A DNA stretch of 64,000 bases from Escherichia coli. Lineage in GTDB: Bacteria > Pseudomonadota > Gammaproteobacteria > Enterobacterales > Enterobacteriaceae. The stretch is taken from the NCBI RefSeq assembly GCF_050320075.1, contig NZ_CP190018.1; one strand, written 5' to 3'. Shown here piece by piece: positions 55,301 through 64,000 of the stretch. Made by a program: the position numbers. Numbering within the stretch: position 1 is the first letter of the stretch; the number at the start of each line of letters is the position of its first letter.

Positions 55301-58300
55301 CCGTGAGAACTTACTCTTCACCCACCGCGGCTTATCTGGACCGGCGGTGTTGCAAATTTCCAGCTACTGGCAACCGGGTGAATTTGTCAGTATCAATCTG
55401 CTACCGGATGTGGACCTCGAAACCTTCCTGAATGAGCAGCGTAATGCACATCCGAATCAGAGCCTGAAAAACACACTGGCGGTTCATCTACCGAAGCGGT
55501 TGGTTGAACGTTTACAACAACTCGGGCAAATCCCGGATGTTTCGCTAAAACAGCTCAACGTGCGTGACCAACAGGCACTGATTAGCACATTGACCGACTG
55601 GCGCGTACAACCCAACGGCACTGAAGGCTATCGCACTGCCGAAGTGACGCTCGGCGGCGTGGACACCAACGAACTCTCTTCACGGACGATGGAAGCGCGC
55701 AAAGTGCCTGGGCTGTACTTCATCGGCGAAGTGATGGACGTCACCGGTTGGCTGGGGGGCTATAACTTCCAGTGGGCGTGGTCGAGTGCGTGGGCTTGTG
55801 CGCAGGATTTGATTGCATGTCCGAGGACAATAAAGTTGTACACAAAGCACTAAAGTTGTAACCATTCTCAAAAAACGACGCTAATGTTGTATACTTACTG
55901 AATGTGTGGTTATAGGGTTGGAGACTATAAAATACACATATAGGTACGTATCAATGTCGTTTTTAGGGTACGATCATGGCTAGGGGTAGGCGTCTCAAAT
56001 CCTATTTGGATTATGAAAATGCGCTAGGTGACGGCATAGGAGTGGGCTATGGCCAAAGTTATCAGCCCTGGCTTAGAGCTCAGGACGTTAAATCCCGTGG
56101 AAACCGTTCGATAGTCTTTGGCCTTAAGACGTTTCGAAACCATCATCTCCTTTCTTCTGTCGAAAGTAACTTTTTCTATCTGGCTGAGTTTAATGACTCG
56201 GTGATTGATATCCGGGAACAATTCCCACTCTTTCCTCTCCGGCTTACCCAACAAATAGCAAATCATCTACATTTTCAACATCCTATGGTGAGGGGAGTAA
56301 GAGGAGTACCTGTCGAAGTTCTGAATGTTATGACAACCGATTTTTTACTGACCTTGAGAACTCCTGAAGGCGGACTTCGATACAAAGCTATAGCAGTAAA
56401 ACATAACGAGAGCATACCTGAACGCGAAGCCCAAAAACTTGAAATAGAGAGGATGTTTTGGCAGTTGATTGATGTTGAGTTTCAAATTTATGTTGGCTCG
56501 GAACTCAATAACGTCGTCGGTAAAAACATTTGCTGGGCTACTTCTGTATTAAGAGATGGTTCTGAATTTTATGATAAATATCCTCTTGATAAAATCCGGT
56601 AATGACTCCAACTTATTGATAGTGTTTTATGTTCAGATAATGCCCGATGACTTTGTCATGCAGCTCCACCGATTTTGAGAACGACAGCGACTTCCGTCCC
56701 AGCCGTGCCAGGTGCTGCCTCAGATTCAGGTTATGCCGCTCAATTCGCTGCGTATATCGCTTGCTGATTACGTGCAGCTTTCCCTTCAGGCGGGATTCAT
56801 ACAGCGGCCAGCCATCCGTCATCCATATCACCACGTCAAAGGGTGACAGCAGGCTCATAAGACGCCCCAGCGTCGCCATAGTGCGTTCACCGAATACGTG
56901 CGCAACAACCGTCTTCCGGAGCCTGTCATACGCGTAAAACAGCCAGCGCTGGCGCGATTTAGCCCCGACGTATCCCCACTGTTCGTCCATTTCCGCGCAG
57001 ACGATGACGTCACTGCCCGGCTGTATGCGCGAGGTTACCGACTGCGGCCTGAGTTTTTTAAATGGCGGAAAATCGTGTTGAGGCCAACGCCCATAATGCG
57101 GGCAGTTGCCCGGCATCCAACGCCATTCATGGCCATATCAATGATTTTCTGGTGCGTACCGGGTTGAGAAGCGGTGTAAGTGAACTGCAGTTGCCATGTT
57201 TTACGGCAGTGAGAGCAGAGATAGCGCTGATGTCCGGCGGTGCTTTTGCCGTTACGCACCACCCCGTCAGTAGCTGAACAGGAGGGACAGCTGATAGAAA
57301 CAGAAGCCACTGGAGCACCTCAAAAACACCATCATACACTAAATCAGTAAGTTGGCAGCATCACCTGAAACCCGATAATGTACTAGATAAATTCTGGCCT
57401 CAGATGACATCAGAAAGAATCATCTCAAGATCAACCTATCATGACGGAACGCAGGAGAGAAGCGAGCTGGTTGAGATCCTGAGCGACATTGTATCCATGA
57501 CGAGATAATGTATTAAATAAGCATCTCAGGTGCATATATTCCGGTCCTCAACAAAGGACCGGAGTACAGAGTAGTAAAAACCCGAAATTAATCGGGTTTG
57601 AATTATATAAAGATTAACCGACTCCCGCGCCCAGGAACGATGTAAAATCACGCTTGTCGTGACATTTCTACAATGTTTACTTTTGACTATCAAGCCATTT
57701 ATTCATCTGCTCAATTTCACCTTTTTGAGCTTTAATGATGTCCTGCGCGAGCTTTCTCATTTTCGGATCTTTTCCGTATTTGAGCTCGGTCTCAGCCATT
57801 GCTATTGCCCCTTCATGGTGCGCTACCATGCCTTTCGCAAAAGCCTTGTCGGGATCGGACTCATTTACGGCAGCCATCATTTTGTCATGCATGTCTTTCA
57901 TGCCAGCCATATATTCCTGTGACGAAGCCGAGGTAGACATATCAGTCATTTTCATTTCTGAATGTTCTGCTGAAATCGCTGGCAGGGATAACATTAATAC
58001 TGCAAATAAAGTGTTTCTGGCTTTCATAAAAAATATCCTTTTAGCGTTGATGCCCGTTAACTGTAGCAGAATCTGATAAAAATGCCCCTGTAGGGGGCAA
58101 AGATGTTGCCATATATCCGGTTACGGAAAAATCTATCAAGGAAATAAGGACAGCACAGATACTTCCCTCGCCGTCAGCCTGCACTGAGCATGCGACGATG
58201 CGCTTCGGCCATGGCCTGATGTGGGCCAGACTGACCGTTATTCATAAATTCATGGGCAACTGCAGCTCTTTCATGCTCATTCATTGCCGCTAATGACTTC

Positions 58301-61300: not shown

Positions 61301-64000
61301 TTCACTGTCCCATAACAGCCTGACGCCAGCGGTAAATGGCTATCAGGATACGGGCTGGCGTAACTTTTTTGTCGATCCCCAGGTTACCCGGTTGATCGGT
61401 GAAGCTCTGACTAATAACCGTGATTTGAGAATGGCTGCCCTGAAGGTTGAAGAGGCCCGAGCCCAGTTCAACGTCACGGATGCAGATCGTTATCCCCAGC
61501 TGAATGCCTCATCCGGGATAACATACAGCGGTGGTCTGAAAGGTGACAAGCCGACCACACAGGAGTACGACGCGAGACTGGAGCTCAGCTATGAGCTCGA
61601 TTTTTTCGGCAAACTTAAGAACATGAGTGATGCTGATCGCCAGAACTACTTTGCCAGCGAAGAAGCCCGTCGGGCCGTACACATCCTGCTGGTATCCAAC
61701 GTTTCACAAAGCTATTTCAGCCAGCAACTGGCGTACGAACAACTTCGTATTGCGCGGGAAACGCTGAAAAATTATCAACAGTCCTATGCTTTCGTTGAGC
61801 AGCAGCTCGTGACCGGGAGTACGAACGTTCTGGCACTTGAACAGGCGCGAGGACAAATCGAAAGTACCCGCGCCGAAATAGCCAAACGAGAAGGCGATCT
61901 GGCTCAGGCAAACAATGCCCTGCAACTGGTGCTGGGAACGTACCGCGCACTTCCGTCAGAAAAAGGGATGAAAGGCGGGGAGATAGCCCCAGTAAAATTG
62001 CCACCAAATCTGTCTTCACAAATTTTGCTGCAGCGACCGGATATTATGGAAGCGGAATATCAGCTGAAAGCGGCTGATGCCAATATTGGCGCAGCGCGAG
62101 CGGCCTTTTTCCCCTCAATTACCCTGACCAGTGGTCTTTCCGCAAGCAGTACGGAGCTGTCCAGCCTGTTTACGTCAGGAAGTGGAATGTGGAATTTTAT
62201 CCCTAAAATTGAAATTCCTATATTTAATGCTGGCAGGAATAAAGCCAATCTGAAGCTGGCTGAAATTCGCCAGCAACAGTCGGTGGTTAATTACGAACAA
62301 AAAATTCAGTCAGCCTTTAAGGATGTTTCCGACACGCTTGCGCTGCGCGACAGCCTTAGCCAGCAACTTGAGTCACAGCAGCGTTATCTTGATTCACTTC
62401 AGATAACTCTCCAGCGTGCCAGAGGATTGTATGCAAGTGGTGCTGTCAGTTACATCGAAGTGCTGGATGCAGAACGTTCCCTCTTCGCTACCCAGCAAAC
62501 CATTCTCGATCTTACCTATTCCCGGCAGGTTAACGAAATTAATCTGTTTACCGCGCTGGGTGGCGGTTGGGTAGAGTAAATTTATTTAATTAATCAGGAA
62601 ATTAAAATGCGTAATTCACTTAAAGCCGTTTTATTTGGTGCCTTCTCTGTCATGTTTTCTGCCGGTCTTCATGCTGAAACACATCAGCATGGCGATATGA
62701 ATACTGCCAGTGATGCTTCGGTACAGCAAGTTATCAAGGGCACCGGTGTCGTTAAAGACATTGATATGAATACTAAGAAAATCACCATTTCGCATGAAGC
62801 AATTCCAGCGGTGGGCTGGCCTGCAATGACCATGCGCTTTACTTTTGTTAATGCAGACGATGCTATTAATGCCCTGAAAACAGGCAACCATGTCGATTTC
62901 TCGTTTATTCAGCAGGGCAATATCTCCTTACTCAAAAGCATTAACGTGACGCAGTCCTGATTGGCTGTCCGGAGCGATTACATCCTGTGCGCCTGTACAT
63001 TCACATAGGTATATGTGTGAGTTAACCGTCAGGCGCATATGCCAGGTGTTTTGATTTTTTAGCGGAAAATTGTATGGCTTCTTTAAAGATAAAATATGCT
63101 GCAATAATTATCAGCAGCCTCATAGCAGGGGGGCTGATATCGGTTACTGCCTGGCAGTATGTAAACTCAGCACAAAAGACAGAAAAAACAGAACAAAAGG
63201 CACCGGAACGAAAGGTGCTTTTCTGGTATGACCCAATGAAACCGGATACCAAATTTGATAAACCCGGAAAATCGCCCTTTATGGATATGGACCTGGTGCC
63301 AAAATATGCTGATGACAGTGGCGATAAAAGCAGTGGCGGGATCCGTATCGACCCAACCCAGGTTCAGAATCTGGGATTAAAAACGCAAAAAGTCACGCGA
63401 GGAATGCTGAATTATTCTCAGACAATCCCGGCTAATGTCAGCTATAACGAGTATCAGTTTGTTATTGTGCAGGCGCGTTCTGACGGGTTTGTCGAAAAAG
63501 TCTACCCCATGACGATTGGCGATCATGTGAAGAAGGGGACGCCACTTATCGATATTACCATTCCGGACTGGGTGGAAGCACAGAGTGAATTCCTTCTGTT
63601 ATCCAGCACCGGTGGTACTTCCACGCAAATTAAAGGCGTTCTGGAACGGCTTCGCCTGGCAGGTATGCCGGAAGAGGATATTCAGAGACTGCGTTCTACC
63701 CGGAGCATTCAGACCCGTTTTACCATTAAAGCACCTATTGATGGTGTCATTACTGCATTTGACCTGCGCACCGGCATGAATATTTCGAAAGATAAGGTGG
63801 TGGCTCAGATTCAGGGAATGGACCCGGTCTGGATCAGCGCTGCAGTGCCAGAATCTATCGCCTATCTGCTGAAAGATACGTCGCAGTTTGAAATTTCGGT
63901 ACCGGCTTATCCGGATAAAACATTCCATGTCGAAAAATGGAATATTCTTCCCAGCGTGGATCAGACAACCCGTACGCTTCAGGTCCGTCTCCAGGTTTCT

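Follow-up and report, generated by a model that had tools for sequence, protein, structure and literature searches.

A silver/copper resistance (sil) cluster occupies positions 58174–64000 of the window, i.e., the entire 64-kb stretch of E. coli DNA analyzed here. Three of its genes lie on the minus strand: silE (58174–58605), which encodes a His/Met-rich periplasmic Ag(I)/Cu(I)-binding protein of 143 aa; silS (58850–60331), encoding a sensor histidine kinase of 493 aa; and silR (60324–61004), encoding an OmpR-family response regulator of 226 aa. Diverging from them on the plus strand are silC (61194–62579; outer-membrane channel, 461 aa), silF (62607–62960; periplasmic Ag(I)/Cu(I) chaperone, 117 aa), and silB, the gene for a periplasmic adaptor, which starts at 63074 and extends beyond 64000 with the first 309 of its 430 codons inside the window. 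Automatic annotation labels silF as cusF. The place and orientation of all six genes, as given in the preliminary description, were recovered both from the open reading frames and from the annotation of a 100%-identical record, that of E. coli YZLc1-3. All six reading frames are intact and of full length as far as the window end. The NCBIfam matches of every Sil protein in the window exceed the curated cut-offs, and SilE matches the equivalog NF047789 over its full length (288.8 bits; cut-off 200).

Longer open reading frames for silE (182 aa, start at 58722) and silC (562 aa, start at 60891) were rejected, because the annotated starts, giving 143 and 461 aa, match the R478 and pMG101 proteins over their full length and are followed by an N-terminal signal or lipoprotein sequence. 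The leader of the long silE frame also lacks a codon-like substitution pattern in a four-lineage alignment. Beyond silE, the minus strand carries copM/DUF305 (57677–58027), a periplasmic metallochaperone-family gene whose product is 100% identical to the pMG101-derived copy. A terminator-like hairpin followed by a T run is located downstream of silE (58083–58099, minus strand); it comes from a consensus scan that returned five such sites against 6.2 expected in shuffled sequence, and is a pointer only. No Rfam match fell inside the coordinates of the sil cluster.

The Sil proteins of the window share 99.4–100% amino acid identity with those of R478 (NC_005211, IncHI2), i.e., 100% for SilE, SilR, SilC, SilF, and SilB and 99.4% for SilS. 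Their identity to the pMG101-derived proteins carried by E. coli J53 (chromosome CP070962) is 95.8–100%, with SilE, like CopM, at 100% and SilS, SilR, SilC, SilF, and SilB at 95.8–97.4%. The determinant of Salmonella plasmid pMG101 (silE, silRS, silCFBA-ORF105/silG-silP) has the same gene order and orientation, the same adjoining copM/DUF305 gene, and the same transposon end sequence. At the DNA level, the segment 57366–64000 is 95.4% identical to the pMG101 type, and the window copy therefore belongs to the R478-type lineage and not to that of pMG101. The cluster DNA is 99.9–100% identical to copies on IncHI2 plasmids such as R478 and its relative pAPEC-O1-R (99.9%, with the same element ends), and the DNA search returned 2709 plasmid records with at least 80% query coverage.

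The cluster runs off the window, as had been noted before, and in the identical YZLc1-3 genome the expected silA, silP, and pco genes do follow. The order there is silA, a DUF411 gene (silG/ORF105), and silP, then pcoABCDRSE, with all genes from silA through pcoE annotated as intact; the island also includes a DUF2933 gene, an M23 peptidase gene, and a gene annotated as 'copper resistance protein'. YZLc1-3 thus has the composition by which CHASRI is recognized, namely sil/cus-like and pco genes adjacent to one another and flanked by transposable-element genes, of which the window holds the sil part only. The island described in 2016 (PMC4824010), in which sil/cus-like genes adjoin pcoABCDRSE together with pcoF and pcoG and are flanked by transposable-element genes, is the same island with no difference of kind; the window covers its first third, and the full set is found in YZLc1-3.

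The Tn7-like carrier at yhiN

The cluster is carried by a Tn7-like element whose attachment-site gene, yhiN (54630–55853, plus strand), encodes 407 aa ending in ...DLIACPRTIKLYTKH, the last codons being transposon-end sequence. The K-12 YhiN protein, in contrast, has 400 aa and ends in ...DLIAAKSS. The sequence is homologous to the empty site of K-12 up to 55817 and to the R478 element from 55818 onwards, which puts the junction 13–18 nt before the K-12 yhiN stop codon. The tnsA-proximal end (55818–55975, plus strand) starts with TGTCCGAGGACAATAAAGTTGT and contains repeated ...AAAGTTGTA... motifs, which are presumed to be TnsB-binding sites. The preliminary description suggested extending the sequence to the other transposon end, which lies outside the window in the identical genome and reads ...AACTTTAATGTCTCTACACA. 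The element thus has TGT...ACA termini (TGTCCGAGGACAATAAAGTTGT... and ...AACTTTAATGTCTCTACACA) with repeated AAAGTTGTA in both ends. The target duplication is 6 nt here (ATTGCA), whereas the R478 and J53 copies of this element have 5 nt (GGTCC and TCAAC, respectively). The same yhiN junction is present in 646 of 5426 complete E. coli genomes; in FAHZZU6724 the left junction is one base shorter. At its far end, the YZLc1-3 element contains ISCro1 and a second IS1.

Little remains of the transposition module. The 5' 622 nt of the 843-nt tnsA gene (55976–56597, plus strand), annotated as a TnsA N-terminal domain pseudogene, is all that is left of the tnsA, tnsB, tnsC, and tnsD/tniQ set at the element. 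It is followed by an IS1 of the IS1B type (56598–57365, 768 bp, minus strand) and then by the 3' remnant of an AAA/TOPRIM (OLD-like) ATPase gene (57366–57508, plus strand). The sequences flanking the IS1, ATAAAATCC and TGAAACCCG, do not form a 9-bp target duplication. Relative to R478, which is a plasmid with the complete 32.4-kb element, the chromosomal copy in the window has the IS1 and, adjoining it, a deletion of 9213 bp, with which went the rest of tnsA, the complete tnsB, tnsC, and tnsD genes, one hypothetical gene, one HTH gene, and the greater part of the ATPase gene. The view of the cluster as transposon cargo is correct, with one qualification: the element ends and the target duplication are present, but tnsB, tnsC, tnsD, and the 3' part of tnsA were lost through the IS1-associated deletion. 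With tnsB, tnsC, and tnsD absent and tnsA mostly lost, the element can no longer transpose by itself. The carrier is a defective, non-autonomous derivative of a yhiN-targeting Tn7-like element of the Tn6230 kind, a fixed remnant.

Elements of the Tn6230 type have been reported to target yhiN (PMC11406308, PMC10121019). The window copy resembles them in that it is inserted beside, or within, the 3' end of yhiN and in that its tnsA-proximal end points towards this gene, as reported; the likeness is one of target site and orientation, the transposition genes being mostly deleted here. The Tn7/sil/pco element of pMG101 has also moved into the yhiN-yhiM region in J53 (PMC8417528). That copy retains intact tnsABCD and is located 304 bp further towards yhiM, whereas the copy in the window is placed in the last yhiN codons and has lost tnsBCD. 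The 646 shared junctions suggest, as a minor possibility, that the last codons of yhiN may be the precise insertion point of the yhiN-targeting element, which would then rewrite the YhiN C-terminus; the laboratory event in J53, 304 bp away, would in that case be off-site. If true, this would bear on how this transposon family recognizes its att site. As for the history of the locus, the carrier would have arrived by transposition at the yhiN site, and the 9.2-kb deletion of tnsA'-tnsBCD would later have disabled it, so that the island in this lineage would now be inherited vertically or moved by recombination.

Inverted repeats and proposed regulation of the sil operons

Two inverted repeats of the CusR/SilR type are found at the coordinates proposed earlier, and they are the only ATGACAnnnnTGTCAT sites in the 64 kb. 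One lies in the divergent promoter region of silR and silC (core 61075–61090, ATGACAACATTGTCAT; extended 61071–61092, AAAATGACAACATTGTCATTAT), and the other is upstream of silE (58826–58841, core ATGACATCTTTGTCAT). A scan of the window with ATGACANNNNTGTCAT, allowing at most one mismatch, gave these two matches against 0.17 expected, and two or more matches occurred in 2 of 100 shuffles. The core at 61075–61090, lying in the spacer between the divergent regulator and pump genes, matches the inverted repeat ATGACAAnnTTGTCAT, and the silR/silC repeat aligns column for column with the repeat of the K-12 cusR/cusC spacer, AAAATGACAATTTTGTCATTTT. With the two central bases excluded, 20 positions were scored against the K-12 repeat; the silC-side box has a mismatch at one of them and the silE-side box at four, so that the earlier labels of 'strong' and 'weaker' are fair. 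Neither box varies among the sil lineages of pMG101, Klebsiella, Enterobacter, and R478, although the spacer around them does. In the loci retrieved, a strict search did not find the same palindrome ahead of the pco genes, so that the pco promoters there are without the exact motif. A search of openly available full texts for a 'CusR box' reported upstream of silE returned nothing specific.

A candidate -10 element of the silC promoter, TAAAGT (61124–61129, plus strand), was read from the sequence and is conserved with K-12 cusC; a candidate -10 of the silE promoter, TATAAT (58787–58792, minus strand), was read in the same way. The spacing between box and TAAAGT is equal in sil and in K-12 cus, and the distance from the silE box to TATAAT is likewise the same. 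By our count, each box would be centred at about -53.5 from the start implied by its candidate -10. A sigma-70 consensus scan showed no excess (9 sites found, 9.6 expected in shuffled sequence). It also gave a promoter-like site for silR at 61059–61032, as a pointer only.

The mechanism proposed here draws on the protein families and on published studies of sil and cus. SilS would sense periplasmic Ag(I)/Cu(I) and phosphorylate SilR; by binding to the inverted repeat of the silR/silC spacer, SilR~P would activate silRS and silCFBA(G)P from their divergent promoters. SilR~P would also bind the related repeat upstream of silE, switching this gene on from its own promoter. SilCBA is predicted to form a tripartite RND pump which exports Ag(I)/Cu(I) from the periplasm, with SilF passing metal to it and SilE soaking up periplasmic metal, while SilP, encoded beyond the window, would pump metal out of the cytoplasm. 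Three sil transcription units have been reported, silCFBAGP, silRS, and silE, the last being strongly induced by Ag (PMC5008109). Mutations in silS derepress SilCFBA, resistance needs SilE, and many sil-positive isolates are phenotypically susceptible to silver until silS mutates (PMC4356207). According to a report that cites Yamamoto and Ishihama (2005), both cus operons are switched on by CusR~P, which binds to a box located between cusR and cusC (PMC10920338). We are highly confident that 58174–64000 is the silE-silS-silR/silC-silF-silB part of a plasmid-type sil determinant, fixed in the E. coli chromosome as Tn7-like cargo inserted at the 3' end of yhiN and probably regulated by SilRS through the two boxes as outlined.

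A different wiring is possible, though we consider it rather unlikely, in which the boxes are operated mainly by the CusRS of the host, or by both systems, which would make the island part of the copper regulon of the chromosome and SilRS redundant in part. SilR and CusR are 87% identical, the silC-side box departs from the K-12 repeat at a single scored position within the same promoter geometry, and 98% of E. coli genomes carry cus. Moreover pcoE, a paralogue of silE, is mentioned, with reference to Munson et al. (2000), as being under chromosomal cusRS control (PMC5008109). However, silver resistance in sil carriers arises via silS mutation, which suggests that SilS is the sensor in control of SilCFBA (PMC4356207), and silRS is intact in the window; the sequence itself does not separate the binding of the two regulators.

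The SilS allele, the chromosomal cus operon, and significance

Relative to the common allele, the SilS of the window includes the changes E142K and R474C. Position 474 is an Arg residue in all five comparators, i.e., four other SilS sequences and K-12 CusS, and for this reason R474C could alter the sensor in either direction. The exact allele is present on at least 82 E. coli contigs. There is a slim chance that the R474C and E142K allele is a natural set-point mutation which would derepress SilCFBA and SilE.

In our opinion it is very unlikely that the cluster is a piece of decaying cargo that R474C has left silent or defective and that contributes nothing to metal tolerance. Such decay would fit with a residue change at an otherwise invariant position and with a carrier that insertion sequences have already degraded, namely IS1 in the window and ISCro1 plus a second IS1 at the far end. 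It is at odds with the six intact reading frames, the two intact boxes, the intact annotation of silA through pcoE in the identical genome, and the 82 contigs, which indicate that the SilS allele persists and spreads.

The reading of the locus as an acquired sil determinant also has to be set against the chromosomal cusRS-cusCFBA operon of K-12, with which it shares a divergent two-component/RND architecture, a near-identical repeat, the same -10, the same spacing, and presumably the same mechanism. The cus operon is without silE, silG, silP, and copM, and it occupies a different chromosomal site; in K-12, cus is at 593–602 kb and yhiN at 3.636 Mb, so the two are distinct, as had been assumed. 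With cusS in 5334 of 5426 complete genomes, cus is a core gene set and sil an accessory one. From this prevalence of 98%, we infer that YZLc1-3 itself also has the cus operon. The preliminary description favored Sil over Cus, and the protein comparison bears this out: SilS, SilR, SilC, SilF, and SilB have 56%, 87%, 72%, 47%, and 68% identity to their K-12 Cus counterparts, well below their identity to the R478 and pMG101 proteins, and SilE has no Cus counterpart. That the genes are the native cusRS-cusCFBA or a recent duplicate of it is ruled out by protein identity and genomic position, for although the architecture is the same, the NCBIfam models matched are shared Cus/Sil subfamily models, the chaperone gene was automatically named cusF, and SilR is close to CusR, the F, S, B, and C proteins reach only 47–72% identity to Cus against 99–100% to R478 Sil, silE is present, the locus lies at yhiN inside a transposon with defined ends, and cusS is a separate core gene.

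The acquired sil cluster is common, well described, and already known; nothing in it is new, and its importance is routine in that the annotation is confirmed and no new question is opened. The small leads are the SilS R474C allele and the exact yhiN insertion point as compared with the J53 event, which are of interest to specialists in metal resistance or in Tn7-like targeting. In the presence of copper supplements in feed and of silver dressings, sil/pco islands and antibiotic resistance are selected together, and a chromosomal sil copy that is unable to transpose is a stable trait of its lineage. Should the SilS allele indeed be a set-point mutation, a fixed, non-mobile chromosomal island would confer overt silver resistance on a poultry- and human-associated lineage.

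Gene content and identity of the sil cluster

The six sil genes that the preliminary description had placed at the end of the window, and their coordinates, are right, since a six-frame ORF list, the annotation of a 100% identical record (NZ_CP123240.1, the E. coli YZLc1-3 chromosome) and the NCBIfam models all agree. On the minus strand lie silE (58174-58605), silS (58850-60331) and silR (60324-61004), and on the plus strand silC (61194-62579), silF (62607-62960) and silB (63074 to beyond 64000). All products score over the curated NCBIfam cut-offs; SilE reaches 288.8 bits with the SilE equivalog, for which the cut-off is 200. 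The annotated start of silE (143 aa) agrees with the reference proteins, and an in-frame ATG at 58722, upstream of the gene (58606-58722), lengthens the mechanical ORF to 182 aa. A copM/DUF305 metallochaperone-family gene (57677-58027, minus strand) is situated between an IS1 scar and silE. It is a member of the island that the preliminary description did not list and that is not usually counted as a sil gene; its product does not differ from the pMG101-derived copy (100% identity).

Three references served for comparison of the products: the cus locus of K-12, the R478 plasmid's sil-pco element and, from the chromosome of E. coli J53 (CP070962; accession from PMC8417528), the Tn7/sil/pco unit derived from pMG101. 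SilE has 100% identity to both the R478 and the pMG101-derived proteins and is without a counterpart in K-12 Cus. For the remaining proteins, identities to R478, pMG101-derived and K-12 Cus sequences are, respectively, 99.4%, 97.0% and 56% (SilS), 100%, 97.3% and 87% (SilR), 100%, 97.4% and 72% (SilC), 100%, 97.4% and 47% (SilF), and 100%, 95.8% and 68% (first 309 aa of SilB). The proteins are thus not nearer to Cus than to Sil, the outcome that would have spoken against the original assignment: identity is 95.8-100% to Sil and 47-87% to K-12 Cus. At the DNA level, the cluster is 95.4% identical to the pMG101 lineage and 99.9-100% identical to R478-type plasmids. The cluster therefore belongs to the R478-type sil lineage, to which protein identity is 99.4-100%. 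That sil is separate from cus also holds, as cus is a core locus of its own, found at 593-602 kb in K-12 (yhiN is at 3.636 Mb), and cusS is found in 5334 of 5426 complete genomes.

Putative regulatory boxes and candidate promoters

The palindromes reported upstream of silC and silE are both present. With at most one mismatch, ATGACANNNNTGTCAT occurs at 61075-61090 (silR/silC spacer) and 58826-58841 (silE side) and nowhere else in the 64-kb window (two found against 0.17 expected; two matches were reached in 2 of 100 shuffles). Both boxes are letter-for-letter the same in R478, the pMG101 unit, and plasmids of Klebsiella quasipneumoniae and Enterobacter ludwigii; in the latter two plasmids, other positions of the silS-silE spacer flanking the silE-side box vary. 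The inverted repeat of the K-12 cusR/cusC spacer, AAAATGACAATTTTGTCATTTT, aligns column for column with the silR/silC box, and a TAAAGT hexamer downstream of the box also aligns between sil and K-12 cus. A third half-site-like CTGTCA, 11 nt past the second half-site (61095-61100 and 58816-58821 in the window; about 4533-4538 in the K-12 cus locus, L003), is common to the silC, silE and K-12 cusC boxes and is kept in all aligned sequences.

Counted from the sequence, TAAAGT (61124-61129) implies a start about 53.5 nt downstream of the centre of the silC-side box, and a perfect minus-strand TATAAT (58792-58787) implies one equally far from the centre of the silE-side box. Both transcription starts are predictions from these hexamers. 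If the TATAAT, a candidate hexamer, is the true -10, the silE transcript would have a leader of about 175 nt. This layout fits the three published sil transcription units, silCFBAGP, silRS and silE, the last strongly induced by silver (PMC5008109). It also fits the binding of CusR~P to the box in the cusR/cusC spacer, which turns on both operons (PMC10920338, citing Yamamoto and Ishihama 2005).

The transposon at yhiN and the remainder of the island

The sequence is homologous to the empty yhiN-yhiM site of K-12 up to 55817 and to the R478 element from 55818, where the element end opens with TGTCCGAGGACAATAAAGTTGT; repeated AAAGTTGTA motifs come next. As the element is inserted 13-18 nt ahead of the K-12 yhiN stop codon, the C-terminus of YhiN is altered: it reads ...DLIACPRTIKLYTKH (407 aa) versus ...DLIAAKSS (400 aa) in K-12, the seven extra residues being encoded by the transposon end. 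The insertion is flanked by a 6-nt target duplication, ATTGCA (55812-55817; L002 33359-33364 in YZLc1-3), whereas the copies in R478 and J53 have 5-nt duplications, GGTCC and TCAAC, respectively. In strain FAHZZU6724, the left junction is one base shorter, with ATTGC directly followed by TGT. The pMG101-derived laboratory insertion in J53 differs in lying 304 bp nearer to yhiM than the natural yhiN junction.

A 768-bp IS1 (56598-57365), which is without a target duplication, interrupts tnsA: the gene begins at 55976 and breaks off at 56597. Beside the IS1, 9213 bp are absent relative to R478, and homology restarts at 57366. The deletion covers the 3' end of tnsA, tnsB, tnsC and tnsD in full, two small genes (one hypothetical, the other HTH), and the greater part of an AAA/TOPRIM (OLD-like) ATPase gene. 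The view of sil as transposon cargo is upheld by the element end at yhiN, the target duplication and the R478 homology, but autonomous movement is not, since tnsBCD are deleted. Judged from its gene content, the sil-pco transposon has lost the ability to move by itself and is thus immobilized.

The expectation that silA, silP and pco lie past 64000 was borne out in YZLc1-3, where silB is followed by silA, silG, silP, a DUF2933 gene, an M23 peptidase gene, a gene annotated 'copper resistance protein', and pcoABCDRSE. After pcoE come an ISCro1 insertion, the other transposon end that had been sought (...CTCTACACA), and a yhiM fragment cut by a second IS1. In this stretch (L002 30454-34803), ISCro1 (IS66 family) is just within the distal end, and the second IS1 truncates yhiM, fusing the fragment to a yhiJ-like fragment. 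By these two events the far side of the island has been rearranged too.

The window also contains the gad acid-fitness island, the chu haem-uptake cluster and arsRBC, with arsC adjoined by an extra permease gene and an ArsR/SmtB-family gene. Rfam matches, all of them away from the sil cluster (17940-18053, 23833-23904, 33573-33604, 43834-44151), comprise GadY, ES205, a shuA/chuA 5'-UTR thermoregulator located ahead of chuA, and a pair of AgrB antisense RNAs beside dinQ.

Distribution, SilS allele and proposed control

The sil cluster found here is already known: the island has been reported under the name CHASRI (PMC4824010), and published work also covers the Tn7/sil/pco unit with its transfer to yhiN-yhiM (PMC8417528, PMC4356207) and Tn7-like elements that target yhiN (Tn6230; PMC11406308, PMC10121019). 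The preliminary observation is confirmed, and its interpretation is supported. At a query coverage of 80% or more, sil is present in 2709 plasmid records; of the 5426 complete E. coli genomes, 823 have it, mainly on the chromosome. With matches required to span 80% or more of the probe, a 140-nt yhiN/element junction probe hits 646 of the 5426, and the J53-junction probe only three genomes. The exact IS1-deleted arrangement was found as one unbroken match in only two complete genomes, YZLc1-3 and Ec-U3.

Compared with the common E. coli allele, SilS carries E142K and R474C. Residue 142 is in a variable Met-rich loop, and position 474 holds Arg in each of the four other SilS compared as well as in K-12 CusS. 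Precisely this allele is present on 82 contigs, every one of them named E. coli. A derepressing silS mutation is usually required for overt silver resistance (PMC4356207).

Based on the protein families and the literature, periplasmic Ag(I)/Cu(I) would be sensed by SilS, leading to phosphorylation of SilR. From the shared box, SilR~P would turn on both divergent promoters, that of silRS and that of silCFBAGP; from the second box, it would turn on silE. Metal would then be expelled by SilCBA with SilF as a chaperone, while SilE would provide sequestration and SilP export from the cytoplasm. Because SilR and CusR are 87% identical, the boxes are nearly alike, and chromosomal cusRS control of pcoE is reported (PMC5008109), it is plausible that the host CusR may cross-activate the sil boxes.
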